Positions 2,119 through 27,597 of a stretch of 32,488 nt of DNA are shown piece by piece. Source of the DNA: Chrysochromulina tobinii (taxonomy: Eukaryota); contig JWZX01002352.1 in NCBI GenBank assembly GCA_001275005.1, positions 1-32,488 on the forward strand, written 5' to 3'. The translations under genes were made by a program, and so were the position numbers. The notes under the pieces were generated by a model. That model had not been told where the DNA came from. It saw nothing but the letters and a program-made list of their open reading frames with translations, and did not search any database. Position 1 is the first letter of the stretch; the number at the start of each line of letters is the position of its first letter.

Positions 2119-3746
2119 ATGGCGTCTCGCGCGGACCCGGCGGTTGAAGTCGCGGCGGTGGTGACGGATGAGTCGGACACACTCATTCATGATGTTGTCG
2201 ATGACGACACAGCTCTCGTCGTGGTGCCCGCCACCATGGATGACGCGGCGGCGACGTCGGAGTCGAACCAGCGGAAAAAGGTCAACCAGCGCTGGGTGCT
2301 CTCCGATGAGGCCAAGCGAGCTCTCGAGGCGGTGTATAATGAGCGGCGCTTCCCGACGCTTGCCATGCGCGAGGAGCTCGCGCAGGAACTCGGTGGCTCG
2401 CTCCGGCAAGTTCAAGTCTGGTTCCAGAACCGACGGCAACGCGACCACCGGCCTGACGACGAGGCCACCCTGAGTACCGGTACGACCGCGATGGCCGTGG
2501 GCGGGAGCGTGCAGCCAATGTGGGGGTTTATGCCCGGGCATCCGTACCCGCTAGGCGCGATCCCGATGCCCTCCATGCAGGCCCACCCGTTGGGGACTCT
2601 CCCAATGTTCCCACCGTCTGCGGGCGGTGCCTCGGCCTTCAGCGTGCAGCACGGTCCACAGTACCCGGGGGGGTTGACGCCTGGGCCGGGCGGCTCGCCG
2701 CCGCAGCTGTCCCATCCGATCCTCTCCATGAACAACCATCTCTACCAGGCGCTTGCGCAGCGCCCGCCGTCGACGGCAGCAGGTTGGACTGCACAACAGA
2801 GGTCGACAGCTGCCCTCAGGAGCCCGCAGCCTTCGCATCCCCAGTGCCTACACCCGCCTTCAGTGATGGCGTCGCTCCCGCCGCTCCCGCCGCTCCCCTC
2901 GCTCTCCTCGCTCGCCCCACAGCTGCCGGGGCAGCCTCGTACCGCGCTCGGTACAGCGCTCGCCTCCCCACTGCTGAGCGGCGCGCATGCCCAACACGGC
3001 GCTCATGCCCAGCACGGCGCTCAGTCGACGCCCGCGCCTAACGCCTCCCCTGCCATGGTCAGCAGAGGCGGCAGCTGCAGCTGCACCGTTTCGGGCGCCG
3101 TTTCGGGCGCCGGCGCCGCGCGCGGCGCCGCCGAGGTTGCCGCCGGAGACACGTGCATGCTCAACACGGCGCTCAACGACGGAGGCGGCACGGGAGGCGG
3201 CACGGGAGGCGCCTTGGTGGGCACGGGAGGCGCCTTGGTGGGCACGGGAGGCGCCTTGGTGGGCACGGGAGGCGGCACGGGAGGCGCACGCGCGCTGTAC
3301 CGGTCTGGTGCCCACCAAGGCGCGTCGCCGCCCATCGGCTCGAGCGCCGTGTCGGGCACCCGCGCTCCCGCGCCCGCGTCCACCGGCGCCGTGTCGGGCG
3401 CGCCCTCGGCGCCCGTGCAGCCCTTTGACCCTCTGCCCTCCGTCGCGCCGTCCTCGAGCGCGCTGCCGACGCTGCCGGCGCTGCCGACGCTCGGCACGGC
3501 GCTCGGCACGGCAGCTGGCGCGCTCGCATCGGGCGCCGTGTCGGGCATGGACCATCTCGCGGGCGCGCCTGCGCTGAGTGGCTCCATACAGCACTATCTC
3601 GACCAACTCAGCCGCGTGCAGAGGGAGGCACAGCAGCTCACCACGGCGCTTGGGCGCGTGGTCGCTCAGGTAGCCTCCGCGACGGACCCGGCCCATGCAC
3701 ACATGTACCAGCAGCAGCAGCAATTGAAGCAATACCACTCGTACTG

Positions 3747-3800
<54 letters not shown>

Positions 3801-4926
3801 GCTCGCGCCGCCCTTCCAACCCGTCGGCGCAGCTCCCCGCAGCTACAGCAGCGGCAGCGCCAGCGGCAGCGCGCCCAGCATGGCGCCCGGCAACTTTTCT
3901 ACCGGTGCCTCCCCTCTTCTTCCCACACGCAGCTCCGTCAGTGCTTCGCCGAATCTCCTGAGCAGCTCGCTGTTTGCTCCGCCAAGCATTCCTCCCCACA
4001 GCTGCCTCCCAAGCCCCAAGCCCTCGTCCCTGCTTTCCCACAGCTGCCTCCCAAGCCCGAAGCCCTCGTCCGTGCTTTCCCACAGCTGCCTCCCAAGCCC
4101 GAAGCCCTCGTCCCTGCTCTCTACTGAGGCTGGGAAGGCGGCAGGTAGCGCCGTGGCGGGCGTCTCGGGGGTCGGCGGCGCCTCTGCAAGCGCCTACGCC
4201 GTCCTGGGCGCCGCCGTGGTGGGCGCGTGGATGTCGCCCGCTACCGACTGCGCGCCGTCACCCGCCATAGCCGCCGACCTGTGGGAAACGAATCGGGCGG
4301 TGCCCGCTCCGGCGCTCCGTGCGCACGCGAGGCCGGACCAGGCGGCGCCGTCATGGGCGCCCGTCATGAGAGGCGCCGTCATGGGCGGTGCCGCCGGCTG
4401 GGCGGCGCCGCGCCCAGAACGGCGCTTGTGCGCAGCCCCCGCCCCCCCCACCGCCGCCGCCGGCTCTGAGGACCACGGAGACGACGAGGAGGATTCGTCA
4501 AGGAAGGACCAAGTTTCGTCAACCAACGTCCCGAGAGCCGCGGGAGATCGCATCCGCAAGAGTGACCTCTCGGCGGGAGATCGCATCCGCAAGAGTGACT
4601 CCGACCTCTCGGCCACCGGACTGACGCCACTGCTCACACCCAACTTCCATGATGATGTGATGGCCGCGTTTGCGTCCAACGAGGCGGCCGCGCCTCGCGC
4701 GCCGGCCGTCCTTCTGGGCGCCCCTCGCGCCGTTCTGGGCGCCCCTCGCGCCGCCTGGGCCGCAGCGCCCATCACGGCGCCCTTCGCCCCTGACGGTCGC
4801 GTGGATCCCTCGAGCAAGTTCAAGCGAAAGCGCGCGAGTCTAGAGAGCCTCGGTCTGCCGCCTCCGACGCGCGGCTCCTGCCCTCCTCCGGCGGCTAGTG
4901 ATTCCTCCGGCGGGTCCGGCGAGTGA
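2119..4926 (+). CDS. Homeodomain transcription factor with a long low-complexity, polyQ-containing tail
   Basis: First ATG of the long ORF is at 2119. Homeodomain RWVLSDEAKRALEAVYNERRFPTLAMREELAQELGGSLRQVQVWFQNRRQR (WFQNRR helix 3, Q50). Q17 tract; KFKRKR NLS-like motif near the C-terminus; no intron needed. Confidence 0.85.
3181..3288 (+). repeat. Coding minisatellite, 21-nt unit (GTGGALV) x3 with flanking GGCACGGGAGGC units
   Basis: GGCACGGGAGGCGCCTTGGTG is repeated in tandem. Confidence 0.9.
3748..3798 (+). repeat. (CAG)17 polyglutamine microsatellite
   Basis: Uninterrupted CAG run in frame with the homeodomain ORF. Confidence 0.95.
3996..4117 (+). repeat. Coding 42-nt tandem repeat x3 (HSCLPSPKPSSLLS)
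   Basis: CACAGCTGCCTCCCAAGCCC(C/G)AAGCCCTCGTCC occurs three times at 42-nt spacing. Confidence 0.9.
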
Positions 4927-6164: not shown

Positions 6165-6794
6165 ATGCTTTCCATCATGGCTATGACCTCGGCGGCATTC
6201 GTTCCCGTCATGACACCGGTTCGACCGGCGCCTTTCGCGACGCGGACTCTGGCACCAGAGATGAATGCGGCCTTCCTCGCTTTGGACGCCATCGAGCCGG
6301 CAGTCTCCTCATACGTCAACATCTGGGTGCCTCTCTTCGAGAGCGCCAAGGCGTCGGGTCTCGCACCCGACTTCCTCCTGCACTGGGGGCACGGCGCCGC
6401 AATGGCCACGGTGCTCTTTGCCATGGGTGGCTTCGGCGCCTTCCTTGGCTGGCAGATCCGCTTCGGCAAGGGCGAGGAGGTGTACTCACTGACTCTGGGT
6501 GAGACCGTCCGCGAGCTGCACCCCAAGCTCATGGGCGCTATGCTCTTCTTTTTCCTTCTTGGCGGCCAGGGCGGGCTGGTGCTGCTCGCGACCGGCGGCC
6601 AGCCAATCCTCCAGTCGGCGCACTCGTCCACGGCCGTCATCGGCCTGTCGCTATTGCTGGCGCAGGCGGCGATCGGCGTCACCATGAAGGACTCTGAGCT
6701 CGGCCGTACGGTGCATGCATACCTTGGTACCGGCACGCTGCTCGCCCTCGTGGTGCACGCCTACTTCGGGCTCAACCTCGGCCAATCCTTCTAA
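6165..6794 (+). CDS. Plastid-targeted DUF4079-like (cytochrome b561-like) membrane protein
   Basis: ATG at 6165. Signal-like MLSIMAMTSAAF followed by a transit-like segment (ASAF-type motif of complex plastids). Four hydrophobic helices with conserved His residues: HWGHG, LHPKL, SAHS, HAYLG. Confidence 0.75.
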   Translation: MLSIMAMTSAAFVPVMTPVRPAPFATRTLAPEMNAAFLALDAIEPAVSSYVNIWVPLFESAKASGLAPDFLLHWGHGAAMATVLFAMGGFGAFLGWQIRFGKGEEVYSLTLGETVRELHPKLMGAMLFFFLLGGQGGLVLLATGGQPILQSAHSSTAVIGLSLLLAQAAIGVTMKDSELGRTVHAYLGTGTLLALVVHAYFGLNLGQSF

Positions 6795-7290: not shown

Positions 7291-8007
7291 ATGAAGGCAC
7301 CGCCCCCTGCAGGCGACTTTGCGGACACCTTATGCGGTGGAGATCCTGGGCCGTGTGGGTGCTGCATCTCCGATCGCCGAGTGGGTTGCGTGTCCGTGCT
7401 CGTTTCGTGGTGCATCCCGGGTGTCGTTGTTGCCCAACTCTTCCAGCGCGTCACACGGATACCCGACTCGTTTGCCATCATCGCCATCTTCTTGTTCGGC
7501 ACAACCATCACCAACATCCTTCTAAACTCGCTCTGTGGCGATCAATCCAGCCTCTTTGGGCTGCCTGGCTTGCTTACGCGACCCTTCTGGCCGAGCTTGT
7601 GTCCCGTCGGCCAAAAGTGCGCACCGGACAACGACGGCGCGAGTGGCGACGACGCGGAGGACGGCGGTCGATCCGACGTATGCATCTTCAACGACTGGCT
7701 CGCGTTCACGTCCGGGCTGGTCCTCTTGAGTCTCTTCTTGGTGGTCCGAGCGCGCGTGCGGGAGCAGTATCGCATCGCGCCGTGTTGCTGCGGTGTCCTC
7801 GAGGACTGCTTCCATGCCCTGTGGTGCTTGCCGTGTGCGGCGAGCCAGCTGATGCGCCACGTCAGCACGCACGAGGCCACCGAGTACAGCCTCTTTTCGG
7901 CCGACGGCACGAAGACGTTGGACCCACCGCTGCGGGACGCGAGGGGTGCTGAGGCGTCGCCGGCGCGCGCAGCCTCGATTCGCGCTGAAGCCTCGATGCG
8001 TGTCTAG
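7291..8007 (+). CDS. PLAC8-family Cys-rich membrane protein
   Basis: N-terminal CGCC..SWCIPGVVVAQ and C-terminal RARVREQYRI..EDCFHALWCLPCAASQLMRHV are the two PLAC8 signature blocks, separated by transmembrane segments. Confidence 0.8.
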   Translation: MKAPPPAGDFADTLCGGDPGPCGCCISDRRVGCVSVLVSWCIPGVVVAQLFQRVTRIPDSFAIIAIFLFGTTITNILLNSLCGDQSSLFGLPGLLTRPFWPSLCPVGQKCAPDNDGASGDDAEDGGRSDVCIFNDWLAFTSGLVLLSLFLVVRARVREQYRIAPCCCGVLEDCFHALWCLPCAASQLMRHVSTHEATEYSLFSADGTKTLDPPLRDARGAEASPARAASIRAEASMRV

Positions 8008-8221: not shown

Positions 8222-11200
8222 TTACGCCGCCGCTGTCCCCCCGCTCTCCTGCCGTGCCGTCGGCGTCGTCGGCGCTGCGTCATCCTCGTCGTCGGCTTGG
8301 TCGTCGGCTTGGTCGTCGGCACGATCCCTCTTGGCTTGGTCGATCCGAGCAAAGCGCCTCGCCATAAACCCTCTTGGCGGGCTGAGCACGGCTGCTGCAC
8401 CTGACTCCGAGGCAGCTGCTGCACGTGTCGCCGCGCCAGCAGCGCCGCCGAGTGCCGCTGCTGCTGCTACCGGCTGCGCGCCGTGCCGTGCGCCCACGGC
8501 CTCCGCCTCCTCGATCTCCCGGAGCTCCGTGAGCGCTCGATACGGCGCGCTCGGTACGGCGCGCACCGCCTCCTCGATCTCCCGGAGCTCCGTGAGCGCT
8601 CGATACGGCGCGCTCGGTACGGCGCCCACCGCCTCCTCGATCTCCCGGAGCTCCCTCAGCGCCACCGACAGCTGCGCATGCAACTGCGCCTCCGCGACCC
8701 GCCAGGCGGAGCCTTCGAGGGCATGGGCGCTCAGGACGGCGCTCAGGGCGGCCTGCATGCCTGCGTCCTTGTCCCTCTGCGCGCGCCGCGCGCGCCGTAC
8801 CGAGCGCCCGAACAGGAGGGCGAGCGCGAGCGCGCCGAGCCGGGCGCCGCCGCTCAGTGCGCCCAACGCGACGCCGAGCAGCTGCCACGCCCACGACAGC
8901 GCCCACCATGCCCAGCGCGCCGCCTCGAGCAGCGCCGCCTCGAGCGCGCACGCGGGCGCGGAGCCGGCGAAGCAGAGGGTGCTGACGACGACGTAGGCGG
9001 CGGCGGCGAGGAGGGTGCCGACGCTGGCTGTGAGCGCGGCCATGCGTGCGAGGGAGAGGGCGGACGCGAGGATGACGTGGCCCATCCCAAACAGGAGCGC
9101 CGTCGTGAGCGCGAGCAGCACCGCGCACGTGAGCTGCCACGTGAGCAATCTCGTCTCGAGCTCGGCCACCCGTTCGCTCAGTTTCGTCAACTCGTGGGCA
9201 TGCAGCGCGCTCAACGCGGCCTCGCGCTCACGATGGCGCTCCGCCGCCGCCGCCAGCTGCGCCGCGTGTGTGCGCGTCTGCAAGGAGAGCGCCACGTCGG
9301 CAGCCATCCGCGCATAGTCCGGCTTCGATTCCGCATCGGCTTCCGTAACGACTTCAAGCTCATGCGCCACATTGGCGTGCACGGGAGCCGCCGTCGGTTG
9401 GCTGGAAGCCGAGTCGGCATGGGAAGGCTTGGAGGCTGTGGAAGGTGAGGGAGGGGTCCCTAATAAGGAAGGGGAGGCTGTGGAAGTGGCGGCCGCTCCG
9501 CACGACGAGAGCTCCGTGTCACCGCTAGCCGTGTCTCCCTCTGCAGGGCAAGCACCAGGCTGGCCGCCTACCGCCGCTGCTCCCGCCGCCGTCGAGGGCA
9601 ACGGCTCACAAAACTCGGCCACGTCAGGCACCTCGTTCGCCACGTGGAGCATCAACCGTGCCAAGCGCGCGCCGTTGCGGGCGCATGCATCGGCTGCGCG
9701 CGCGTAGAGGCGCTCAACAGAGCGCTCATCCAATCGCATCAGCTCCTCAATCCGTTTCCGTAACGACTTCCCATCGTTACCGGTCAGGCCACTCGAAGAC
9801 ACCGTCGACCCGAGAGCGCCGTCATGAGCACCGCCGGCTCTGGCGGCGGCGGTGGCGGCTTCAACGACCGCACGCATGCGCGGCGGCTCTGCGCCGGCGC
9901 CACGCTGGTCGACGCCCAGGACGGCACCACGCTGGCGCACGATGAGCCTGGCGAACTCGGGCATCCAAAACAGCCCAACGGGCCGGCGGGAGGCATTGTA
10001 CAGCTTGGCGCGCTCCTCGAGCTCACGTTCAAACGCGGCGACCATCTGCGGGTCTGTGAGCGGCAAGAATGGGTACAGGTTGCCCCGCATGCGATCGCGC
10101 ATCTTGCCCGCGGCAAACGGGTTCGGCGTGCCCCTCTGCGCGTCGCACGGGATCCGCTCGTCGAAGATCATGGCGTCCATGGCCTCCCGAGTCGCCTTGT
10201 ACAGGGCCGTGGGCTCGCTGATGCCGGCGCGTCGTTGACGCGCGACGACGTCGGCCAACGCGTCCATGAAGCAATTGGACGTGAGGATGATGAAGGCACC
10301 TGTGGGGAAGAGAGAGCGTCGTGGTGAGCATATGCATGCCGGGTCGGGGGCTGATGAGGATGATGGGCGCACCGGCGGTGCGCGCGTGCTCGCTCACGCA
10401 CGCGCCCTCAGCTGTCTTACGGCTGAACTCGACGAAGCCCCGATGGTCGATCGCGTTCACCAGGGCGGACGTCATAAAGTCCGCACGCGCCTCCTCGATT
10501 TCGTCAAAGAGCACAACGGGCGCTGGCCGCGCGCACGGGTCCGCGGCCGTGGCCGTTGAGAGGGCCCACGAGGACCAGGAGGCGTCCCCGCCACCCCCAC
10601 CGGCGCCTGCACCGCCGCCGCCCGCGCCCGCGCCGCCCGCGCCGCCCGCGCCCGCGCCTGCGCCTGCGCCGCCACCGCCCGTGCAGCCGACACGCCCGGC
10701 GAAGAGCGCGGCGAACGCACCCTCGCCCTTGACACCGCACGGCGGCGAGACGAGCTTCCACATATCCTCATCCGTCTTGTAGTTCTGCATGCTGAAGCGC
10801 TGAAAGGCCGGAGGCGAAGTGCGACCATGCTGCGCGAGCGCCACAAGCTCCGCAAGCATCGTCTTCCCCGTTCCAGGGAAGCCGTAGAAGAAGAAGACGT
10901 GCGCATCTTGGCCGCCGTCTGCACCACTCGCGATGCCGCGCAGCCGCTGCACCACCTCGGAGACGACGCTCTGCTGGCCCGCGATCCTGTCGAAGACGCT
11001 CAGGTCAGGCCACGTGGAAGCCGCCGAGCCGTCATCGACGCCGACGTGCTGCTGCGCCGGCTGCGCCGACTGCTGCTGCTGCCGCCCGTGGCGCGACTCG
11101 AGCTGCTCGCGCATGCGTGCACCGAAGCGCTCCGTCGGCTCTTCTCCGAGCACAACGGCGACCGCCGAGCGCAGCAGGTGCGGCAGCAGGCGCGGTTGAG

Positions 11201-13705: not shown

Positions 13706-14391
13706 ATGGCGATGACCGAGCTCGAAGCCGCTTACGCCAGGCGCAAGAGCCACCTCATCACTAGTCTCGAGCACGGCATCTTCCTCGGAATGGGCGCGGC
13801 GGCGGCAGACTCCGGCTTGCTCAGCCACAACAGAATCACCCACATACTGAATGTGGCCGACGACGTGCCAAGGTCTGCTGCCACCGAGGGCCTGGTGTAC
13901 TGCTGTCTCAACGTTGGAGATTTCGGCGCGGACGCTGGCATCTCACGTGTGTTTGACGCTGCACTCGCGTTTGTGCGTCCAGCTATCGACTCTGGTGGTG
14001 TCGTGCTCGTTCACTGCGCGAATGGCTCCAATCGATCACCGACGGTGGCCATTGCGCTGCTCATGCAGCTGCGGGATTGGCCGCTCGCTACCGCGTACGC
14101 CCATGTCGCCAGCCGGCGACTAGTGCAGCCGCTCGCCGATAACCGTCGCGAGCTACTGCGCTTCGAGGTGGCGCTGCGCGGCGTGGCCAGCATGGAGGAG
14201 GGCTCCGGAGGCAAGTTGGTGCCCCTTGCTCTTGACTCTAGTGCCGCGCCGCTGACAGCACGAGCAACGCCGCCGCAACCATCGTCGCCGCCGCCGCCTT
14301 CGCTACCGCCTTCGCCTTCGCCTTCGCCATCGCCATCGCCGCCGCCTTCGCCGCCGCCTTCGCCGCCGAACAAAGCCACCGCAACGTTTCT

Positions 14392-14424
<33 letters not shown>

Positions 14425-15367
14425 GCCGCCGCTACCACGCAGCACCTTGGAGGCGGCGATGGCGGGACGGATGGAGGAAGTGGTCACTTGGCTCGACGAT
14501 TGGCTTGAGTGCGGCGATGCTAAGCTCGACTCGAGCGGTGATGTCGTCTCGGAGTGCGCCGCGGTCAAAGCGAAGGACGCCCTCGAAGGCAGCCAGGGCT
14601 GCGTCTCGGCGTGGTTTCACATGGACTCTCGAGTGGAGGCGCGCTGCCAAGAGTGCCGAGAGATGACGTTACTCATTGCTGCCTCGATGGGCGGCCAGAA
14701 GGCTCTGGTGGCCCGCCTCCTTGAGTGCTGTCGGAGTGCGCCCGCGCGCCTCAAGATGACGGGAATGCGCGATGCTGACGGGTACACGGCGCTCATGTGG
14801 GCGGCGGAGCGGGGCGAGTTCGGTGTGGTGGCTGCGCTGCTCAAGGCGGGGGCACTCACAGATCCGCCGTGGCCGTCGGGGGCTGAGTTACAAGAATCAC
14901 CTTCGTCTGAGGCACCATTGTCGTCGGAGGCCAAGGCAGTTTCGACTGAGGGGACCTACCCCCTTATTTCGACGGAGACAGCCCTCACGATTGCGTGCAA
15001 GCTCGGTCACGCTTCGATTGTGTTTGCGCTCGTGCGCGCCGGGGCGAGCACGAGCGCTGTCGACGGGGACGGCGCGTCTGCCCTCGAGTGCGTCGCGCGG
15101 CAAGGGCACGTGGCCGCTGCTAAGGCCTTGATTAGCAAGCAGCAGCTCTCGTCACATGACCCGCACGCGCTTGGTGCCCTGATCGTCGCGGCGATGCGGG
15201 GGCACGGCGCGATGGTGGAGCTCTTGCTGCTGAGTGGGCTCGAGGCCGACGCGCTTGATGGTAACGGGCTATCTGCGCGCTCGGCTGCGCGGATGGAGGG
15301 GCGAGAGGAAGTCCTCGCGGTGATCGATGGCGTCGACCGTCTGAAGCGTGCTGAAGCTTCAAGCTAA
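13706..15367 (+). CDS. Dual-specificity phosphatase with Pro-rich linker and ankyrin repeats
   Basis: Shows IFLG, ITHILNVA and the catalytic VLVHCANGSNRS (HCx5R). Poly-Pro/Ser-Pro run at about 14266-14435. Ankyrin motifs TALMWAAERG, TALTIACKLGH, ARQGH and AAMRGH. Confidence 0.85.
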
Positions 15368-16123: not shown

Positions 16124-16807
16124 GCGTTGTACGGACGCCACAGCAGCGCCTGTGCGCTTGCGCGGCATAGAAGCATTGATGCAACATCGGTTGCTTGACA
16201 AAGCAACGCAAAGAAAGGTGGGAAAACACGCTTGCTCCGCACTCCGCACTCATGTTCAAGTGTCACGGACAGACGAGAGACGGAGCGCCTCACGCTGCGA
16301 GGAAGGACCGTCGGAGACCATGCAAGTCCCAATCGCAACGCCGTCGGTATAGCAGTGTCACGCGCAAGGTCAAGCGGCCTAGATAGGGTCGCTCTTTCCT
16401 CTCTTTCTTATGTCCGATCATGCCTGTACTGCCAGTGTGAGCGCCGTTTTGCGTATTGGTGATCCTTACTGTCTTAGGTCTTCAAGGTCGAAGGCTCGTG
16501 CCGCGTGCGTATGCACTCGGGGCTCCGGGGCGCGCGCGCGGGCCGCGGCGCGCCCCGCGCTAAGCCTATAAAGCCTAAGGGTCGCCTTGCTCGAACATTA
16601 GTTACTTGTCCTGCCATAATTGCCTGACTGTCTATGTCTCTCTGTTGTTCAGTTGGCAAATAAAAACTTCTCTGTTTCTGCCTGTAACGTGCGACTGCGT
16701 TTCGTCAAGCATTTCGCTTTCGGGCAATTTGGCGCTCCGCCGATTGTGCAGCCGATATGCACGTCACCATGCAAGGGCACGGGCGCCCACTACGATCGAA
16801 CATCCAT

Positions 16808-18179
16808 ATGTGGTCATGCGCAGTGGTGCTGGTCCTGCTTGCGCCCGAGGTGAACGCGCAGCAGCCGCCGTCTTTCGTCTCAGGAGGTTCTGTCAAGGTC
16901 GACGGTCCTCCTCCGCCTACACCCATCCCCATGAATCCGGGAGCCCGTCACTCGCACGATGCCGAGATAAATCTTGTGCAGCCGCGGCATGCCCACAAAC
17001 CGCCGCGACACAGAGCGCACGACAATGGCCTAGCGCAGCGCTACCTCGGGACGGCTGGCAATGCCGCCATGAGCGGGAACTGGCGGCTGTGCGCCGACAG
17101 CTACCTCGCGGCTTACTGGGCATGCACCGACGACTGGGAGTATCGGTACATTTGCTGGTCGGGCTACACGTCAGTGCTGCGCGAGGGCAACATCCAGGTG
17201 GCTGCGAGCGACGTGCAGCTGCTCGACGAGGTCGCGTCCGACTCGAGGGCGCCTTCACACCACCGGGTGCAGGCCTTCTTCACACGCGGTTTCGTCGCGC
17301 ACTCGATGCTCAGAGACGACCAAGCGAGCGCGGCCGGGTATGCGAGCGCCGTCCGGGAGGGCGTCAAGGCGCTCGCCGACCTCGCCGCCCGCACCAGTGC
17401 CGAAGGGAAGAGCGCCGTACTGAGCGCCGATGCGAGCATCCTCATGGCCACGTCGGCCGGGTACGTGGCGCCGCGCGGCCCGAGAGAGTGCTCACCACGG
17501 CGCCCCGTCTCCCAGCACGCAAGGGCTCACGACGGCGCCCTCTCCCCACAGGTACGTGCACATGCTGACGAGCAAACTGCTGCACGACCTTCTGGACTAC
17601 GCCGAGGATAATCTCGCGCTGGTGAAGCATGCAATGGCCGAGCAGAGGCGGCTGGGCGAGCTCTCGCGCCCAGGACAGCGCGACGTGCACGACTATGACG
17701 AGGACGAGGAGGGGGAGGGTATGACTTCCTAATGACTTCCTAATGACTTCCTAATGACTTCCTAATGACTATGACGAGGACGAGGAGGGGGCCTTGGCCG
17801 GCATGCAAGTGCTCACCACGGCGCCCCCTCCCCACAGGTACCAAGATCGCCGCCTTGGCCGGCATCGCGCGTCATCACCATGGAGGGCCGCTACGCGCCG
17901 TCGTGGGCGCCACCCGCGACGGGCTGCCCCGATCGGCTCCACGAGGGTCGTGCCCCGCCGCCGTGAGCGCCGCCTTGAGCGCCCAAGACGGCGCGAACCC
18001 CGCAGGCGCCTACGACACGCCGTTGGTGCACACGTCGGCGGCGCTCGAGTTTCGTCACACGTACTATGAGATCGCGCTGCGCAAGCGCGACGAGCTGCGC
18101 GCTGCGCAAGCGCGCCGTCGCAAGCGCCTCGCCGCTGCCGCGATGGGCACGGGCGACGGCGACGACGACGGCGACGACG

Positions 18180-18212
<33 letters not shown>

Positions 18213-18603
18213 TCATCGTCGGCGACGGTGGCGGCGGCGGCGGCGTCGTGGCGAGCGCCGTGACGGCAGATGAAGCTGGCGGCCTGAGCGAGCCGCCAGA
18301 CGCCGTGCTGAGCGCCTCCGCCTCTGGGTACGTGGGCACCCTCGCCTTCGAGCAGCCGCTGCATGCAAGTGCTCACTACGGCGCCCTTCTCTCCCCACAG
18401 GTACGCGGGCACCCTCGCCTTCGAGCAGCCGCTGCCGATGCCGCAGTCGTCGTCACGGGAGTGCCACGTGCACTCGTGCGTGCTCACGGAGCGCGACCAC
18501 GAGTGCCTTCACAGCCGGAGCTGTGAATGGCCGTTAGGCCATCTAAGGCCTGTGGGGGAACAGTTTGTGGCGCCGCGGAAGGTGCGTGAATGGCGGGTCA
18601 AAA

Positions 18604-18635
<32 letters not shown>

Positions 18636-20318
18636 AGCGGCAGTGAGGACGACGTCAGCGACGAGGAGGACGACGTCAGCGACGAGGAGGACGATGAGGA
18701 AGGGGTCGTGGTTGCCAGCCTCGAGCCCGAGCTGAGCCCGGGGGCTTTTTGGCGCCAGCACGTAGGCGCGTACAAGCCCGTCATCGTGCGCGGCGGCGCG
18801 CGCGCCGCCATGGGCGCCCAGCCGTGGGATGACGCCTTCCTAATCGAGCACTGCGCCCTCGCGGATGGGAAGCCGTGGTACGCTAATGACTTCCTAATGA
18901 TTTCCTAATGACTTCCTAATGACTTACTAATCGAGCACTGCGCCCTCGGAAGCCATGGAACGCTGATTGCCACTCATGGGCTCTGGTGATACCCTTGATT
19001 GCCTTCCTCATCGGGTACGCTCTCATCGAGAAGAAAAACCGCATGCAAGTGCTCACCGCGCCCCCCTCCCCACAGGCACGCTCTCATCGTGAAGCAGAAC
19101 CGCATCACACACAACGACCGTCACCCCCTGATGACCGGCTGGACCTTTTGCGACTTCCTCAAGCGCTACAACCGACCCGAGCATGAGAATATGTTGTACA
19201 CGGTCACGCCACTCTCGGAGGCCGGCAGTACGCTACGTCGCTTCCTTTGGCTGCCCGAGCCACTCAGGTGCTCCCACTACTGATGACCTCCCTTGCCTAA
19301 TTAGGTGATACCCTTGATGACCTCCCACTACTTATGACTACTGATGACCTCCCTGATGGCCCCATGATTGCATTTGATGGCCACTCCGATTGCGGCTGAT
19401 GACCACGGGTGGGCGCAGGTGCGCTGAGCTGTATGAGAGCTTGCACGAGGCGCGTCTGTGGATGAGCGCAGGCAACACAACCTCCTCCATCCACTTTGAC
19501 ACCCATGAGAACTACATGCTCCAGCTCGATGGGTCCAAGGACGTGTACATGTACTGCTCGAGCCCAACGGCCGCCTTCCATGCTGATTGCCTCCCTCATT
19601 GCATACAGCTCGAGCCCAACGGCCGCCTTCCATGCTGATTGCCTCCCTCATTGCATGCTGATTGCCTCCCTCATTGCATACTGCTCGAGCCCAACGGCCG
19701 CCTTCCATGCTGATTGCCTCCCTCATTGCATGCTGATTGCTTCCCTCATTGCATACTGCTCGAGCCCAACGGCCGCCTTCCATCTCTCTTCCCTCTCCGT
19801 TCATACCTTTGCCCAATTAGGTGCTGAGATGCGCCTGCCCCTCTTGCCTAATTAGGTGGCACCCCAACGAGTCGCGCAAGCTCTACCTCGACTTCCACAA
19901 CAAGTTCGGCCTCTCGCCCCTCAACGCCGACCGCGTCGACCTCGAACGCTATCCCGAGTTTGCCGCCACGGCGCCGATGCACATGAAAGTGCATGCGGGC
20001 GACGCATTCTACATCCCCGAGGGTCATTGGCATCTCATCATCTCGCACGGGCCGCGCAACGTCGCCGTCGCGCTCGAGTTCGCGCCCTTTGCGCTCGGCG
20101 AGCAGCAGCACTGGCCAGCCCCGGTGACCGAGCGGTACCACTGGCCAGGGCTCTTCTGGGCTGAGTCGGTGCTCATCAGGTATGCGATGCGCGAGCGCTA
20201 CGGCGCCGAGCACTACCACGCGGCCAAGCGCGGCCGGCCCATCACGTGCGAAGAGCTCGTCCCCACTGTCCCCCTCTCTGAGCTCGGATGGCTGGGCTCG
20301 CACGAGCACGCTTCCTAA
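16808..20318 (+). CDS. Signal-peptide-bearing JmjC/cupin-like 2OG-Fe(II) oxygenase with 7 exons: 16808-17460, 17552-17718, 17838-18327, 18401-18877, 19076-19267, 19419-19550, 19856-20318 (857 aa)
   Basis: Six GT-AG introns join the ORF fragments into 2574 nt in one frame. Signal peptide MWSCAVVLVLLAPEVNA; KPVIVRG; LWMS..SIHFDTHEN (HxD); GSK; GDAFYIPEGHWH (distal His). Confidence 0.85.
17461..17551 (+). other. JmjC intron 1 (91 nt) with two tandem copies of the 3' module
   Basis: GTACGTGG...GTGCTCACCACGGCGCCCCGTCTCCCAG-CACGCAAGGGCTCACGACGGCGCCCTCTCCCCACAG | GTACGTGC. Confidence 0.85.
17719..17837 (+). other. JmjC intron 2 (119 nt): 11-mer repeats, exon copies and 3' module
   Basis: GT, (ATGACTTCCTA)4, a copy of the upstream exon, a copy of the downstream exon, then GCATGCAAGTGCTCACCACGGCGCCCCCTCCCCACAG. 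Confidence 0.85.
18328..18400 (+). other. JmjC intron 3 (73 nt): exon-duplicate plus 3' module
   Basis: The first 35 nt equal the first 35 nt of the next exon with 1 mismatch, followed by the module. Confidence 0.9.
18878..19075 (+). other. JmjC intron 4 (198 nt): 11-mer repeats, copies of both flanking exons and 3' module
   Basis: GT...CCCCACAG; splicing gives KPW|HALIVKQNR. Confidence 0.85.
19268..19418 (+). other. JmjC intron 5 (151 nt) rich in TGATGACC-type repeats
   Basis: AG|GTGCTC...GCTGATGACCACGGGTGGGCGCAG|GT; splicing gives EPLR|CAELYESL. Confidence 0.8.
19551..19855 (+). other. JmjC intron 6 (305 nt) with tandem ~52-74 nt units
   Basis: GCTCGAGCCCAACGGCCGCCTTCCAT x4 interleaved with GCTGATTGCCTCCCTCATTGCAT. 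Ends CTTGCCTAATTAG; splicing gives DVYM|WHPNES. Confidence 0.8.
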
Positions 20319-20693
20319 AGTTTCACCTAGTGTACCTAGCTGCTGATAGAATCAAATGTTGAGAAAATGCGGCCGCGAATACTGTATTGGTTATACCCGG
20401 CGCGCCCGCCGCCCGGCAAACGTCGAATAAAAAGTGCACTTATCATGGCACTTAATTTATGTAAGTCACTTATCCGATCCTATCAACCTAATTGTAAATT
20501 GAAGCAACCAACTAACAAAGCTCCAACGGGCTGGGTGTAGCACTTTCCATCACTCTGTTTGGGCCCACTCTCAGTGTGGATAGCATGGGAAAGCAAGAAG
20601 CCGTTCTGCATGCATCGCCGCCGTTTTAATTTTGCGATGACGTTCGGGAATCGTCAGCGAGTGTTAATTGTTGTGTGTTTGCGGTCGCGACAA

Positions 20694-21617
20694 ATGGCGC
20701 CAGAGAAGAACGCGGGCTCGCTCGCCGCAGCCGATGCCCTGCTTCGTTCGCAGCTCCGCCGCGTGGATGAGGGCGTCCGTCAGTCTGGAAATGGCATGCT
20801 AGTGTACCAAGGGAGCATTCTCAGCGAGAGCATGGGCAGGCCTTTACCAAGCCGACCCTTGTCTGCCCGCCCGACTGGCCCCAGTGCGTGGGTGCGGCCC
20901 GGACTGGGAGACGACTCGAGCCCGGGGATCCAGCGCCCAGTCTCCGCACGGAACAGCCGCTTCCCCAATGGCGGCGCCTTCACGGCCATCGAGCGCAAGA
21001 AGCTGCACACGCAGGCGCTGCAACGGCTGCAGAACGACCCGGAGTTTGAGCATCATGAGCATGCGATCACGCCCAACGCCTTTCTGGGCGCGAGCCGCTT
21101 CAGGCAGCTCCTGCCTCCGTCGTCACGGCCTGAATCCACGAGCGTCGCGGGCGCCGTGGCGGCCACCTTCTCGAGCCAGAGCCCGGTAAAGAGCCCGGCG
21201 CCTCGGTTGGCGCCATGGCGGGGCCTCCAAGGGGGCCTCGAGCCTCCACCTCCGCCTTGGCCGCCACCCTCGATGAGTCATTGGGGCCCGAAGGGCGGGA
21301 CGACGACGATGCAATCCGACTTTGTCGACTGGCAACAAGTGTTGCGCCCGTCCGAGAGAGGTGGGCGACCGGTGCGACGACCGGCGGGGTTGTCGCTGAC
21401 GATGGCCTACCCCAATAACGTCCAGGCGCGCCACAAGCTATTCGTGGGTGTGGCGGCCGAGGGCGTCAGGGCGATGCATATAGACCGAACGACGGAGACG
21501 CGCGAGGCATATGGACCAAAGCGGCTCTCGCCACGGCCGTTACCACGGCCGCGCCCGGGCGCCGTCACGGGCGCACCAGTCTGGTATGGTATCCAGAAGA
21601 GTGACCTGTGCTGGTGA
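20694..21617 (+). CDS. Hypothetical Pro/Arg-rich protein, possibly ciliary or microtubule-associated
   Basis: ATG at 20694 follows an AT-rich intergenic region. Contains RPLSAR/RPVSAR motifs and TTMQSDF / TTETREAY motifs reminiscent of Mn repeats (inference). Confidence 0.6.
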   Translation: MAPEKNAGSLAAADALLRSQLRRVDEGVRQSGNGMLVYQGSILSESMGRPLPSRPLSARPTGPSAWVRPGLGDDSSPGIQRPVSARNSRFPNGGAFTAIERKKLHTQALQRLQNDPEFEHHEHAITPNAFLGASRFRQLLPPSSRPESTSVAGAVAATFSSQSPVKSPAPRLAPWRGLQGGLEPPPPPWPPPSMSHWGPKGGTTTMQSDFVDWQQVLRPSERGGRPVRRPAGLSLTMAYPNNVQARHKLFVGVAAEGVRAMHIDRTTETREAYGPKRLSPRPLPRPRPGAVTGAPVWYGIQKSDLCW

Positions 21618-21900
21618 GACCCTCGTGGTGAGACCCTGAGTGCCGTTCTTCCGTGTCGAGACAATTACTCAAATATTTTTTGTTGTTGAGTGTCGACCGC
21701 TGTCCCTCTCGGCTGCCTCGTTGTGTGCAGCCTCGGCTGCCTCTCCGCTAGTCGGAGGCGCCTGCGGCAAACCACCCTTCATTTGCTCAATTGAGCGGTG
21801 TCTTGGACTCTTGGTTGTCGTTTCTAATCAAAACCGTGGGCTGTGAAGAAACTGTGAATGCGCCGCTCGGCGCGTCGCGTCGGTCGGGAGAAGCTGCTCA

Positions 21901-24900
21901 ATGGCTCTATCCTACGCGTCGGCGCTCTTGGCCTCGGCTGCTGCGCTGCTCGAAATATCCGACCGTACGCTGCGCGTTCAGCCCGACATCGAATTTGAGC
22001 TTACGGCGCGCGGCGGCACCGGTTGCATCGAGTGGGTCTCCGAGGACAAAAAACTTGCCAAGGTCGTCGGCCAGAAGTGCGAAGGTGACGGCGAGCTCAC
22101 GAAGTGCGAGGGTGACAGCGAGCTCACCTGCAAGACGTGCTGCGAGGGCGCCGCATCAGTTGCGCGCGTGCGCACGATCGCGCCGCCTCCCGGCAAGACG
22201 CAGCGTTGGTTCACCTTCATCCACGCGAACGCGCTCGACGGCAAGCACGACACCATCTTCTGCGAGGTGAACGTGGCGCCGCTGGACCAGCTGCGCGTGG
22301 TGACGACGGTGCGCCAGGAGCTGCATGCGCACGAGCTGCAGTGGCTGCAGCTCTCGGCCTACGACGCTCTGCCCACCATCTATCTTCACGGCGGCTCATC
22401 CCTGGGCAACGTCTTCTCGCCCCCGGCACTCGAGGCGCTCGACGTGCAGTGGCACTTCCACCCCGAGCGCCTTCTGCAGCCGGTGCCGCCGAATGAGACG
22501 CGGCAGCAGCTGGACGGCGCGCTCGCCAAAGCCGGTGACAACTGGCAGCGCTACCACCGCCTCGCGGTCGTCGCGGGGAGCAACACAGAGGCACACCCGC
22601 TCGAGGTGCGCGTGAGTGCGTCGGTGGCGCTGTCGGGTGGCGGGCGACTCCACACGTCGGAGACGCTGACGATCCAACCGAGTGACTTGCGGCTGGTGCC
22701 GCTGGGGCGCGTGGCACTCGCGCCCACGATGCAAGTGCAATTCAAGCTCCTCACGTGCGATCGCGCTGGCACATGCCAGAAAAAGCCACACGACAGCGTG
22801 GGGCGGGCACCCGATTGGAGCGTGTCACCGACGAAGACCGCGAATGTGCGCATGGCCTCTTGATGGCCACTGATGGCCTCTTGATTGCCTCTTGATTGCC
22901 TCTTGATTGCCTCTTGATTGCCTCTTGATTGTGAATGTGCGCACGCCGAGGCTCACGACGGCGCCTCGCCCCCTCCGCGACGCCTTCGCCATCCCGCCCC
23001 CTTTCCAATCCCCCGTAACCGCCTCCCCGTAACCGCCTTCCCGTAACCACCTCCCCGTAACCGCCGCCACCTAACCGCCACTCGTAACCGCCTCTCGGGA
23101 GCGCAGGTGACGGCGCAAGGGCTCGTGACGGCGCTCGAGTCGGGGAATGCGAGTGTGCGCCTGTACCAGCCGCTCTTCAACGGCAGCATTCCCCTGCTCG
23201 TCTCGCCACCCGCCGCCGTCGTGATGGCGCTGCTCGAAGCCTCCTCTTCCAAATTAGGCGCGGACCTGAACATCCTAATTAGGATCCGCGACGCCTCTTC
23301 CAAATTAGGCGAGGGGCTGAGCGCGCTCGAGGCAGCGCCTGCGCACAGAGCGGCGCCCGACGGCTCGTACCTTCTGCTGCATCGGCCAGGCGCGCCGCGG
23401 CTGCTGCTGCGCACGCACCTGATGAGCCGCGCGCGCGTGGGGGCCGATGCGCAGGGGGGCGCCCAACACGACGCGCCCGCGGGGGGGCACTTGCTGGGCG
23501 GCGGCGGCGGCGGCGGCACGGTGAACCATTCGGTGCCGTTGCTGCTGCCTAGCGACGGCACTAAGACGCCCATCGGGAAGCTCAAGCACCATCTGCCTCA
23601 GCTCAACGCTCGTGACGTGGCGGCCGACAGCGCCGGCGCTTCGTCAGCTTCGTCAGCTTCGTCAGCTTCGTCAGCCGTGGTGGAGCTGCGGGAGGTGGAA
23701 GCGTACCGGTGCGGGAGTGAGTGCACCCTAGAGCGATGTGCACAGGATGGGACGTGCAGGGGCGGTCGCGCGCCGCACCCGGTCTGCCTGTGCCACGAGC
23801 TACGCACGCTGGCGCCGGGCTCTGTGGACCTGCGCGGGAAAATCGAGGCATCGCCGTCGGACGCCCAGCACGACGCGGTGGGCGAGGCGTCGCAATGGGG
23901 GGCACTCGAATCAGTGCTCAGGCTGCGTGTGCTCGAGCCTCTCGAGCTGAAGCCGGCCGCTGCACGCGTGCCGTGGGCGTGTGAGGCGTCCTCGAGTGCA
24001 CGCACGCCCGCCCTCGCACTGCCGCAGCTCAGCGGCGGATCGGGGGTGGCCGCGTGGGCGGTGAGCCCCGGCGACGCGGCGACGCTCGCCACGGCGCCCT
24101 TGGGAGCCACCCCGCTGCTCGTGGTACGACCTGCGCTGCTCACGCTGACGGCGGCCCGAGCCGGAGGGCAAGGTACGCGTCGTCGTCGTCGGACGCGTCA
24201 TACATCTCCACGAGTGCTACTGTCGACGTCGTGCGCGTGGCGTGGCTCGAAATTCATGTGCCCTCCGAAGACGTCGTTCTGGACGCGGACTTCAATGTGA
24301 CGGTCGCGCTGCTCGGTGTGAACGGCCACCCTCTCGCCCTCGACACGTGCGGCGCGCTGCGCTTGAGCTACGAGCTCCTCCACCGAGCAGCCGACTCCCC
24401 CTCCGCCGCCGCCTCCGCCGCCTCCGCCTCCCCCTCCGCCTCTGCCTCCGAGCAGCTCGTACCGGTAACGGCCGTTGGCTCGGCGGGGACGGCGGCAGCG
24501 GGGGAGGTGGCCGTTGCTGCCATGGGCGACCTGCAGTGCCTGCCGCAGTGCCCCAACGGCACCGTCGTGGGCGCCGTCGAGGGCGCCTCGTGCGTGACGC
24601 TCCGGCTGCGCGCGGTTGTCGTCGGGCGCGTCGCCTTGCGTGTGAGGGTCGCGTCTGGATGCGCCGCCGACGCCGCCGACCCCTCCCTCGTCGCCAGCGC
24701 GGAGCGCGTACTTAACGTCTTCGCCCCGCCCCCCGTGCATCAAGTCCAACTGTGCGTGAGCGACGACGACGCGCCGTTCTCGTACGTGCCGCTCCTCCCC
24801 TTGCCACCCACCGTGCGTGCCGCCGCGCTCGCGCACAACCCCGTCTTCGAACCAGCGGCCGGCCAGGCCGACAATCTCGTCGTCGGCGAGATTGTCAACC

Positions 24901-26315
24901 TCGTGAGCTGGGGGCTTCATTTTGAGGTGCGCTGCCGCCGGCGTCACGCGCAAGTGGCCAAGCTGCTGCCTAGCATGCAAGTGCTCACAACGGCGCCATT
25001 TCCCTCGTCCTCAGGTGCGCTGCCGCCGGCCTCACGTGCAAATGGCCAAGCTGCTGCTCAACTATTCCGTCGGACTGCCTCCCCTCGAAGTGGGACTTCA
25101 CGTCACCTGCGGCGACGTGCTTCGCGTCGATGCCGAGGGCGGCAGCCTCGCTATACAGGTGGGCGAGACGGCAGCGCATCCGCTCGTTGGGGCGTGGCGG
25201 GGCGCCCATGTCAGCGCGACGCCCACCGCCGAGGACGCCGACGCCCAGATTGCGATTGAGATTGCGGAGGCGGCGGCGGACGCGGCGGCGGACGGCCTCG
25301 CCCCCCTGCAGCCAAATCGAATGCTCTCCCTCCGAGGCGTGCGCTCCGGCCTCGTGCGCCTCGCCCTACGCGTAGAGCCGCCAAGCGACGCGAGACGCCT
25401 CGACGACGTTTCGTCAGTTTCGGCAGTTTCGGCAGTTTCAGCAGTTTCGTCAGCTTCGTCAGTTTCGTCAGTTTCGTCAGCCGGTGGGGTCGCCTCGGGG
25501 TCCACGCGCCGTGGCGAGCGCCCCCGCAGCCCGCTGGCGACGTGCGCAAGCACAGCGTCGGTGCGGGTACGCGTGGGCAGTCTGGCGCTGGTGTGCCCGT
25601 CGACGAGCGTGCTCGTGGGCGCGTCGGTCGTGTGTTACGCGCTGCATGCCGCCTCGGGTGTCGCGCAGCCACCGGACGCCGCCCTTCTCGCCACCGCTAC
25701 GTTTGAATGGTCGCTCGTCGACGGCGCCCACGACGGCGCGTCGTCGTCGGCCGTGCTTCGTGTGGAGCCCATGGCTGCCTCTGCCTTCGCCGTGCGCCTC
25801 GTCGCGCTCAGCGAGGGTACGGTCACGCTGCGTGTGCACATGCGGAGGCCGGCCAGTGGCGACGAGGCGAGGCACGAGGCGAGGCACGAGGCGTCCCTTC
25901 GCGTGAACGTGCTCCGACCCCTCGTGACCCTTCTCAGCCCGTCGATCGCAAGCGCAGCGCTCGGTACGGCGCCACTCCTCGTGCCGCCCGGTACGGCGCT
26001 TCCCCTCGCGGCCGCCAGCGCTGCGCTCGGTACGGCGCGCGCGCTCTCGTTCTCCCTGTGCGCCGGCGGCGCCGGCGAGGGCGCTCGGGACGGCGCCGAT
26101 GAGGACGCTCGGGACGGCGCCGCGCACGTCGAGGGCTCCACCCTGCACAGCGGCGATCGCCTCGGTCCGCTGTGCGTGCTCGCGACGACGCGCGCCGTCG
26201 TGGGCGATCCCGAGGAGGCGCCCGTCGTGCAGTCGCTGCGTCTCCATATGGAAGTCGTCGCCGTTGCCCAGCTTGGCTGGGCGTATGCCATCAGCGACGG
26301 CACCGACGGCACCGA

Positions 26316-26346
<31 letters not shown>

Positions 26347-27597
26347 CTGGCCGCAGGCGCGATTGCATTCGATGGCATGCTCCACGCGCACTTGCCAACG
26401 GTCCTCTGTGCCCGAGCGTTCGATAGCCTCGGGCGCGCGCTGCTCGGTACGGCGCTCCCCTCCGGCTGGCTGAAGCTGGGGAGCTTGCATGCTGGAGCGG
26501 TACGCGTCAAGCGCATCGGACGAAGCTGCGTGACCGTTTCACTGCATGCAAATGCTCACCACGACGCCCTCTCCCCACAGGTACGCGTCAAGCGCATCGG
26601 ACGAAGCTGCGTGGTCGTTTCAGCCGTTGGCGCGTGGCGGGAGCGGATGCGTGGCGAGGACGGCGACGACGACGCTGCCCGCGCGGCGAACCACACCGAC
26701 TTGACGAACCACACCGACTTGACGAACCACACCGACTTGACGAACCACACCGACTTCGCGGCGGCCGAGGAGGCGGAGGAGGCGGAGGAGGCGGACATGG
26801 AAACTCTCCCTCCGCTGGCCATTTTGGATGCAGTCGCTGCATTGCCCAATGCATCCAGTAGCCTCGCCGCGCACGCGTTCATTCCTCTGTCCCTCGCGCA
26901 CCCCTTGGGCGCTGCTGGTGGCTGGGAGGTCATCCGCAGCGCCTCCGCCACCTTCGCTGCCGCCTCGTACACCGGCGCCGAGGCCGCCGCCGTCCCCGCT
27001 AGGGGAGCCGACGCCACCAACGGCCATGCCGCTGCCGCTAACGCCGAGGCCGGTGCTCGAGACGGCGCGACGGCGCTCGAGACGGCGCCAAGCGACGTCA
27101 CGACCCTCGGCGACCGATTCGACTGGCGGTCGGTCGGCACAGCGGCCCGCGCGGCCATGGCGCACGTGCTGCCCGAGACGGCGCTCCCATTCCTCGAGCT
27201 CGAGCTGCCTACTCTGCCGCTGCCGTCGGTGGATGCGAGCATCCTCGCGCTCTCGGCCGTGCTCGGTCTCGTCCTGATCGGCATGTACCAGCTCTCCTTC
27301 TCGGCGCGGCCGAAGCCGAAGCCCGTCAATGTGCGTGATGACCTCTGATGACCTCTGATGACCTCTGATGACCTCTGATGACCTCTGATGACCTCTGATG
27401 ACCTCTGATGACCTCTGATGGCCACTGATGACCGATGATGACCGAGGATGACCGAGGATGACCGAGGATGACCGCTGATGACCGCTGATGACCAATCTTG
27501 ATTCCCCCCTCCTCAGGTGCGCGAGCTGGGGAAAGAGCTGCGTGGGCCTCAGTCGCCCAAGCACGTCTTCTCGCCCAACCCCAAGCCGCTGGGCTGA
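21901..27597 (+). CDS. NUP210: Nuclear pore membrane glycoprotein gp210-like; exons about 21901-22845, 23107-24926 (unresolved frame change near 24120-24270), 25015-26499, 26581-27330, 27517-27597
   Basis: Signal peptide; FELTARGGTGCIEWVS; CEVNVAPLDQLRVVTTVRQEL..LQLSAYD..GNVFS..W resembles the gp210 N-terminus. Ig-like repeats (VTAQGLVTAL, LSGGSGVAAW, AFDSLGR), a single C-terminal TM helix (ILALSAVLGLVLIGMY) and a short basic/SP cytoplasmic tail; about 1690 aa. Confidence 0.75.
22846..23106 (+). other. Nup210 intron (261 nt) with (TTGATTGCCTC)n, a degenerate internal module and (CCGTAACCGCCTCC)n
   Basis: AAT|GTGCGC...GCGCAG|GTG, phase 0; splicing gives KTAN|VTAQGLVTAL. Confidence 0.8.
24927..25014 (+). 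other. Nup210 intron (88 nt): exon-duplicate plus 3' module
   Basis: The first 43 nt match the next exon with 3 mismatches, followed by GCATGCAAGTGCTCACAACGGCGCCATTTCCCTCGTCCTCAG. Joins ORFs 24054..25259 and 24922..27348. Confidence 0.85.
26500..26580 (+). other. Nup210 intron (81 nt, 3n, stop-free): exon-duplicate plus 3' module
   Basis: The first 42 nt match the next exon with 2 mismatches, followed by GCATGCAAATGCTCACCACGACGCCCTCTCCCCACAG. Confidence 0.8.
26689..26756 (+). repeat. Coding 18-nt repeat x4 (NHTDLT)
   Basis: AACCACACCGACTTGACG in tandem. Confidence 0.9.
27331..27516 (+). other. Nup210 last intron (186 nt), almost entirely (TGATGACCTC)n-type 10-mers
   Basis: AAT|GTGCGT, about 15 10-mer units, then CCCCCCTCCTCAG|GTGCGC. 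The last exon has 26 codons plus TGA at 27595-27597. Confidence 0.8.

Follow-up and report, generated by a model that had tools for sequence, protein, structure and literature searches.

How spliceosomal introns arise is a long-standing question, and until now mass gain has been attributed to introners that resemble transposons and make short, fixed duplications. The nearest published arrangement is that of the introner-like elements of Symbiodinium and Polarella glacialis (classes 4/5 and 6/8/10), in which the duplication provides the donor and the element the acceptor (10.1101/2020.10.14.339549; PMC9860276, preprint 10.1101/2022.06.06.494994). Their duplications are fixed at 4 or 8 nt, whereas those described here vary from 13 to 47 nt and make up about half of the intron. 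The Symbiodinium example has terminal inverted repeats, whereas none were found in five regions tested for the module shared by the present introns, copies of which can derive from a neighbour.

A further introner comes from Chrysochromulina sp. (family 5 of a TARA MAG) and is described with a 4-bp duplication and no terminal inverted repeats (PMC9860276). It resembles the module family in its genus, in having no terminal inverted repeats and in taking a splice site from the duplication, but there the element supplies the 5′ site and a 3′ site is co-opted, opposite to the arrangement found here. It may be related to the full-length parent form of our module (the L006 type, see below). The survey that reported it requires similarity to start no more than 10 intronic bases from both boundaries (PMC9860276). 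Another survey, in its main text, mentions neither Chrysochromulina nor haptophytes, and leaves ~72% of elements unclassified (PMC12130899).

Intron gain by break repair and by tandem duplication has been reviewed (PMC3443670). In break-repair gain, as in module introns, the insert lies between direct repeats at the splice sites and is read as staggered-break repair; the repeats there are 3–8 nt long (PMC5647799, PMC9169325), with one 16/18 case (PMC2809761). Such gain has so far rested on few cases (five unambiguous events in the review) with filler mostly of unknown origin (PMC3443670), whereas the filler here is one recognisable intron end in more than 100 sampled copies. Tandem genomic duplication, in the same account, also lets a duplicated exon give a splice site and splicing restore the mRNA; however, a duplicated AGGT forms both sites there with no foreign sequence, whereas the branch site, tract and AG of module introns (~40 nt) come from the module. 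In mouse cells, paired nicks are reported to give tandem duplications, of which those made by polymerase theta are microhomology-associated with occasional in-cis templated inserts (PMC5730883). That work is like our proposal in the duplication between staggered nicks, the microhomology and the occasional in-cis insert, but unlike it in the engineered breaks, the mouse cells and the absence of intron formation and of a self-propagating template. Duplication-free intron proliferation is described in fungi (PMC8469720). Within the full-text literature covered, no description of introns with 13–47-nt exon copies was found; the supplements of introner papers, where families are tabulated by species, may hold a related Chrysochromulina family.

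The intron at 18328 and its host gene

The window is the whole stretch of DNA analysed here, 32,488 nt of Chrysochromulina tobinii contig JWZX01002352.1. One protein from an intronless gene of the window shares a 90% cluster with a member named Chrysochromulina parva, consistent with a Chrysochromulina haptophyte as host. An earlier note on it had claimed that an intron starting at 18328 begins with a near-identical copy of the next exon's start. The features of this locus are as follows.

16757..20318, plus strand: host gene with seven predicted exons, 874 aa and a C-terminal Cupin_8 (JmjC-like) domain, based on reading frame and Pfam
18328..18400, plus strand: predicted spliceosomal intron, GT...AG, 73 nt; the frame is restored only by its removal
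18328..18362, plus strand: intron-side copy of the next exon's first 35 nt, 34/35 identical, providing the GT donor; alleles vary here
18361..18400, plus strand: shared module (family D12), whose first GC overlaps the end of the exon copy
18401..18435, plus strand: exon-side copy of the duplication, matching 18328–18362 and predicted to stay in the mRNA

The two copies, spaced 73 nt apart, match at 34 of 35 positions, or 35 of 36 counting a shared preceding G. Alignment also confirmed the other matches claimed, at 24927 (40/43), 26500 (40/42) and 10372 (15/18). The ~40-nt module between the copies starts with GCATGC, contains CTCAC and ends with CCCACAG; it comprises a 25-nt core, CTCAC as a branch-site-like motif, a variable pyrimidine tract and CCCACAG as the acceptor. 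The putative branch A of this intron is at 18375. The architecture proposed earlier, with a module ending in AG set between two copies that each start with GT, is supported.

Removal of six introns from 16757–20318 gave 874 stop-free codons, and retention of any single one produced a premature stop. When the 18328 intron was retained, the stop fell at codon 520 and truncated the protein ahead of the Cupin_8 domain, which lies in the last exon. The earlier expectation that splicing restores the original message agrees with this exactly restored reading frame.

We compared the locus with contigs from DNA and RNA runs. One short-read contig from DNA run X5, perhaps from the same culture as the window, equals 18260–18600 with zero differences. 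Among words sampled from 17001–27000, fractions of 0.93–0.95 were present in twelve DNA runs and 0.24–0.32 in six RNA runs. An RNA contig begins at 18400, where the DNA contig runs through, a weak hint of splicing at 18328; among the contigs of three RNA runs no joint across this intron was seen (no contig in X13, only other module copies in X14), and such lack of cover does not count as evidence. Elsewhere in the gene, RNA contig X15 record 22 joined 18876 to 19856 over 325 nt, exactly the predicted exon total. RNA contigs of three runs had a piece edge 16 letters from 19090, i.e. at 19075, indicating that the module AG serves as the acceptor there.

At the 18328 site, the translations of all 15 members listed for a 25-member protein cluster run on into the intron, with variants mostly confined to the intron copy; alleles that share this intron already show differences within it. 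One record, P0145, carries only one copy here, bearing a valine variant otherwise seen only in intron copies. We considered P0145 as an ancestral empty allele and rejected this, given that intron-copy valine and the additional absence of a segment between direct repeats in intron 2; it is read as a secondary deletion or an assembly collapse. Gene-caller translations of the module (MQVLTTAP, HASAHHGA and ACKCSPRR, P0145–P0160) are possible markers of unspliced gene models.

Module introns in the window and across metagenome loci

The earlier note had suggested aligning intron starts with downstream exon starts. A GT...AG scan of this kind across the window returned the cited sites and a fifth at 19015 (26/30), besides tandem-repeat noise, and gave 0 hits on each of five codon-block shuffles of the window. 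The other module introns are as follows.

24927..25014, plus strand: 88-nt intron with a 43-nt exon copy (40/43) and module 24973–25014; retention breaks the frame
26500..26580, plus strand: 81-nt predicted intron with a 42-nt exon copy (40/42) and module 26544–26580, based on alignment
10300..10372, minus strand: intron end with an 18-nt exon copy (15/18) and module 10339–10300; donor at 10372 or 10420
17461..17551, plus strand: intron with a 7-nt exon copy at the donor and two tandem 5′-truncated modules; RNA contigs of two runs end at 17467
17719..17837, plus strand: composite intron with 11-nt tandem repeats, a 25-nt upstream-exon copy, a 14-nt downstream-exon copy and module 17801–17837
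18878..19075, plus strand: composite intron with the same 11-nt repeats as 17719..17837, a 22-nt upstream-exon copy and module 19041–19075; skipped in RNA contigs
19015, plus strand: internal 30-nt copy of the next exon (26/30) within the 18878..19075 intron

The 24927..25014 intron is identical in another assembly (L118). At 26500, the insert is in frame and stop-free, so the frame does not force splicing. The claim that the duplication supplies the GT donor held at 18328 but not at every site: the upstream GT at 10420 also keeps the frame, so the 10372 copy may not be the donor, and the RNA contig uses the donor at 18878, which makes the 19015 copy internal. Pfam did not discriminate between 10372 and 10420; should 10420 be the donor, the end of an older intron would have received the exon copy and module as an addition. 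The minus-strand gene at 10420–10300 is of the AAA family by weak Pfam matches (AAA, AAA_2 and Torsin), with two in-frame donors in its intron. At 19090, the window has T and all four runs compared have A, with which the 19015 match rises from 26/30 to 27/30.

The composite introns contain 12–25-nt copies of both flanking exons. Their 11-nt repeat and a 14-nt motif are each present in two introns of the host gene and in zero other loci counted. A second intron type, with 10–11-nt tandem repeats and branch-site-like words, was seen at 27330–27516, 22855–22930, 19551–19855, 17719–17766 and 18884–18930, and repeats akin to these are also present in many of the loci retrieved, as well as in the 5′ portion of the parent intron. 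Module introns are concentrated in few genes of the window, where intronless-looking genes (2137–4926, 7291–8007, 13706–15367 and 6165–6794) lie beside intron-rich ones; the intronless-looking set includes a homeodomain, PLAC8, a dual-specificity phosphatase with ankyrin repeats and PF13301. An open frame of at least 402 codons at 1–1209 (plus strand), cut by the window start, is cysteine/histidine-rich and has no Pfam match. We take it to resemble the end of a DNA transposase, with a terminal-repeat-like stretch following at 1330–1370.

A 25-letter core pattern was searched against 5/64 parts of a metagenome collection, which gave 134 loci and an estimated ~1900 stretches overall. After context deduplication, the 155 core matches became 140 distinct copies, a sample biased to exact-core copies, of which 110 had a pyrimidine-rich YAG and full flanks and were treated as clean. 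Where two loci were orthologous, the second member of the pair was excluded (thirteen loci) from the allele/core-edge, same-locus-pair, linker, orientation and parent/mirror counts. In the parts of the collection searched, the module recurs in introns of unrelated genes. In run X2, contig depth summed across the module was ~56,600 versus 60–80 for unique DNA; depth is not a copy number, and this value suggests hundreds of copies. Introns made of a duplication and the module are a widespread family in the Chrysochromulina alga. The viral contigs held one module match in an intron-like context (L135, 1501–1560), probably host DNA.

A duplication was called when the match exceeded the 99th percentile of 1085 permuted pairs. 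By this measure, 88 of the 110 clean copies carry a 13–47-nt duplication of the next exon just 5′ of the module, versus 0.6% of the permuted pairs, and they share with break-repair gain the direct repeats at the splice junctions. The duplication starts within 3 nt of the splice junction in 76 of the 88; these anchored duplications begin with GT (69), GC (5) or other letters (2), and imply introns of 55–118 nt (66–94 nt in 74). Lengths spanned 16–47 nt even in the 26 near-perfect cases, as the earlier proposal of variable duplications required, with no mode at short values, and the match fell smoothly from ~0.95 to background by position 37. The recent origin also proposed applies to some copies (20 of 76 duplications are perfect, and one insertion is polymorphic) but not to all: the pooled mismatch is 5.0% (113/2278), and the 18328 alleles differ inside the intron.

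The 5′ side of the module is variable. Most copies have a gap of 0–21 nt there, and upstream of the core no consensus extends beyond ~4 nt in the whole set. In duplication-type copies, module similarity starts 23–50 nt (75 nt in one) after the GT, so these introns fail the two-boundary filter of the published survey as described (PMC9860276). The core 5′ edge itself is well kept: of 59 copies detected independently of the exact pattern, 44 have no more than 2 mismatches in the first 10 nt. Duplication length and linker length were negatively correlated (rho −0.56), which may be an alignment-trimming effect.

Across 121 loci, 217 cores lay on the index strand (index copies included) versus 1 on the opposite strand. 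The copy at L042 is antisense to the adjacent gene and possibly sense to a convergent one. At L042 590–700, this module and its 18-nt duplication run antisense to a minus-strand gene at its 3′ end, and the reverse strand of the module has a donor-like GTGAGC; the translation of this gene presumably resembles the C-terminus of a family A DNA polymerase. No terminal inverted repeat joined the ends of the module or parent in the five regions tested. No tRNA was found in 8 loci, and Rfam gave no match over the module or parent beyond chance level. The module 3′ end is CCCACAG, with no poly(A) or simple-repeat tail. Folding of the module, intron and parent gave z values of −0.74 to +0.24.

Parent forms, partial inserts and an insertion polymorphism

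In a minority of copies (L006, L087 and L126), the sequence upstream of the core is constant and begins with a GT of its own, so that these introns are complete at ~70 nt. The module therefore represents the 3′ half of such a parent, and in the other copies host sequence has taken the place of the 5′ half. The L006 parent is 69 nt long, with its own GT and a 6-nt upstream match, and the parent donor had 13 matches. Only in the parent form does similarity reach near both intron boundaries.

Outside the clean set are 30 copies, 25 of them with flanks, and 17 of these 25 have a duplication. In 7 of the 17, the duplication begins in the last 2–4 bases of the core, so that the insert ends within the module at a short shared word and lacks an AG. 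In L107, the one clear mirror case, the 5′ end of the parent is joined to a 23/24 copy of the end of the upstream exon, which provides the AG. Three other mirror candidates were set aside: L102 (19/20), because its flank is an intron motif shared with L052; L052 itself (29/31), being a tandem unit; and L126 (15/20), being weak. Tandem units of exon copy plus module occur as 10 same-locus pairs.

One insertion is polymorphic. L072 carries an 81-nt insert with a 34/34 duplication, absent from L007 and L033, which are 97.9% identical and have a single copy at the empty site with no intron remnant. The earlier note had called for a search for intron-less alleles, and here one is found. The simpler reading of the difference is a gain in L072, while loss, or collapse in L007 and L033, is possible. 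Among 154 modules with 135 distinct tracts, the 17-nt tract and 7-nt linker of this insert matched only an intron 524 nt downstream and its orthologue.

Linkers of at least 7 nt were common to 3 of 62 same-locus pairs versus 21 of 11,699 other pairs (Fisher p 2.6e-4, pairs not independent). Whole-module edit distance was not smaller in same-locus pairs (p 0.13), and the shared exon prefix averaged 2.17 nt in same-locus and 2.16 nt in other pairs (p 0.60). These two null results indicate that local templating and exon-side microhomology are not general. A same-contig excess (p 2e-7, 40 pairs) was discarded as support for local templating, being confounded by strain and repeated pairs.

Origin of the module introns

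The footprint points to templated repair or reverse transcription and not to transposition; this is introner-like gain with the donor taken from the duplication. With a probability of roughly 0.55, we propose that the module introns are templated insertions, guided by microhomology at staggered breaks and then sieved by splicing. The 3′ end of DNA at such a break, or of a stalled nascent strand, would pair over a few bases with the end of an intron already present and copy ~40–55 nt of it. The extended end would then rejoin its own locus 13–47 nt behind its departure point, leaving the long duplication. As template, the DNA of another family member or its unspliced transcript is likely, and this member would sometimes lie in the same gene. 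Insertion as such is predicted to take no account of splicing; inserts with the module AG and a GT-type start, totalling at least ~66 nt, would be spliced out exactly and persist in exons. A new intron of this kind would end in AG followed by GT and could itself act as a template, so that a half-intron would spread without an element-encoded enzyme.

This proposal of templated repair builds on the observed anatomy, family size, continuous duplication lengths, empty allele, neighbour-matched insert and AG-less partial inserts; the break, the polymerase, the choice between DNA and RNA template and the role of selection are what we infer. Templated repair is favoured by the inserts ending inside the module, the mirror form, the local patchworks of exon sequence and the neighbour donor, and the duplications starting in the last 2–4 core bases of seven copies argue for module-internal microhomology. 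Against it, the well-kept core 5′ edge suits a defined element, and the near-uniform orientation suits an RNA template as well as selection. A stronger version, which we hold only tentatively, is self-templating, transposase-free mass intron gain, in which module-ending introns are copied into staggered breaks, often in the same gene, the duplication gives the donor and the products serve as templates again.

The earlier note had named staggered nicking with target-primed synthesis or break repair, rather than DDE transposition. Its rejection of a fixed-length DDE footprint stands, with break repair the likelier of its other two options. In target-primed reverse transcription, the main rival, a non-LTR reverse transcriptase would use a nick to prime on the 3′ terminus of an intron RNA that had been excised and debranched (or of a SINE-like parent RNA), make a 5′-truncated copy and leave a duplication set by a second nick 13–47 nt away. 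A precise RNA 3′ end and a variable 5′ end are expected of this process, and here the precise end is the RNA 3′ end (AG) and the variable end the 5′ one; the near-uniform orientation also agrees, but all three features (a 3′ end flush with AG, a variable 5′ end and a single orientation) are predicted by selection for splicing as well. SINE and non-LTR insertions likewise have variable-length duplications, a fixed 3′ end and a variable 5′ end, but 17 of the 25 further copies end elsewhere or in tandem units. The existence of a full-length parent with its 13 donor matches fits this route, introns excised from the same gene could account for neighbour copying, and non-LTR-derived introners make up 5% of classified cases (PMC12130899). 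We nevertheless consider it rather unlikely: there is no tail and no tRNA or Rfam head, copies extend at least 14 nt beyond the putative branch A, no partner element turned up in the contigs and loci covered, and the inserts ending in the module, the mirror case and the local exon patchworks could be explained only with priming at internal sites or additional template jumps.

If old introns underwent plain tandem duplication or unequal crossing-over, an intron end would be doubled together with the exon start and the original 5′ part later lost, so that introns were rebuilt and not gained. The tandem units agree with this, P0145 looks like a reciprocal deletion, and 6 of the 76 anchored duplications follow an intron-like 3′ end; 10372 may be a case of rebuilding. 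However, the other 70 do not by the pattern used, the L007/L033 empty site has no intron remnant, and the process covers expansion and loss after a first insertion but not the arrival of the module; as the whole origin we regard it as improbable. A non-autonomous DDE (MITE-like) introner, as in Symbiodinium, Polarella or Aureococcus, would share the recruitment of the element as 3′ site and the duplication as 5′ site (10.1101/2020.10.14.339549; PMC9860276), but the duplications there are fixed at 3–8 nt whereas the continuous 13–47-nt range here excludes a transposase footprint, and no inverted repeat joins the module ends in five regions tested; we regard this origin as highly improbable. An assembly artefact or a retained coding duplication is less credible still. 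The data are short reads, the 18328 joint was not seen in RNA, P0145 has a single copy and the 26500 insert is in frame; yet a raw-read contig spans both copies, which differ, the 15 listed allelic proteins come from separate contigs that carry the intron with their own variants, and retention truncates the protein before the Cupin_8 domain.

In this module family the filler is identifiable, the copies are numerous, their ages range from polymorphic to ~5% diverged, and donors are traceable. Break repair and reverse transcription are therefore directly testable against each other in a cultured alga. As a two-ended similarity filter excludes half-introners, similar families may be unseen in other genomes. 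The proposed mechanism would be a large-scale route to new introns without a transposase and, if its self-templating version is true, introns would breed from neighbouring introns by ordinary repair, invisible to current introner surveys.
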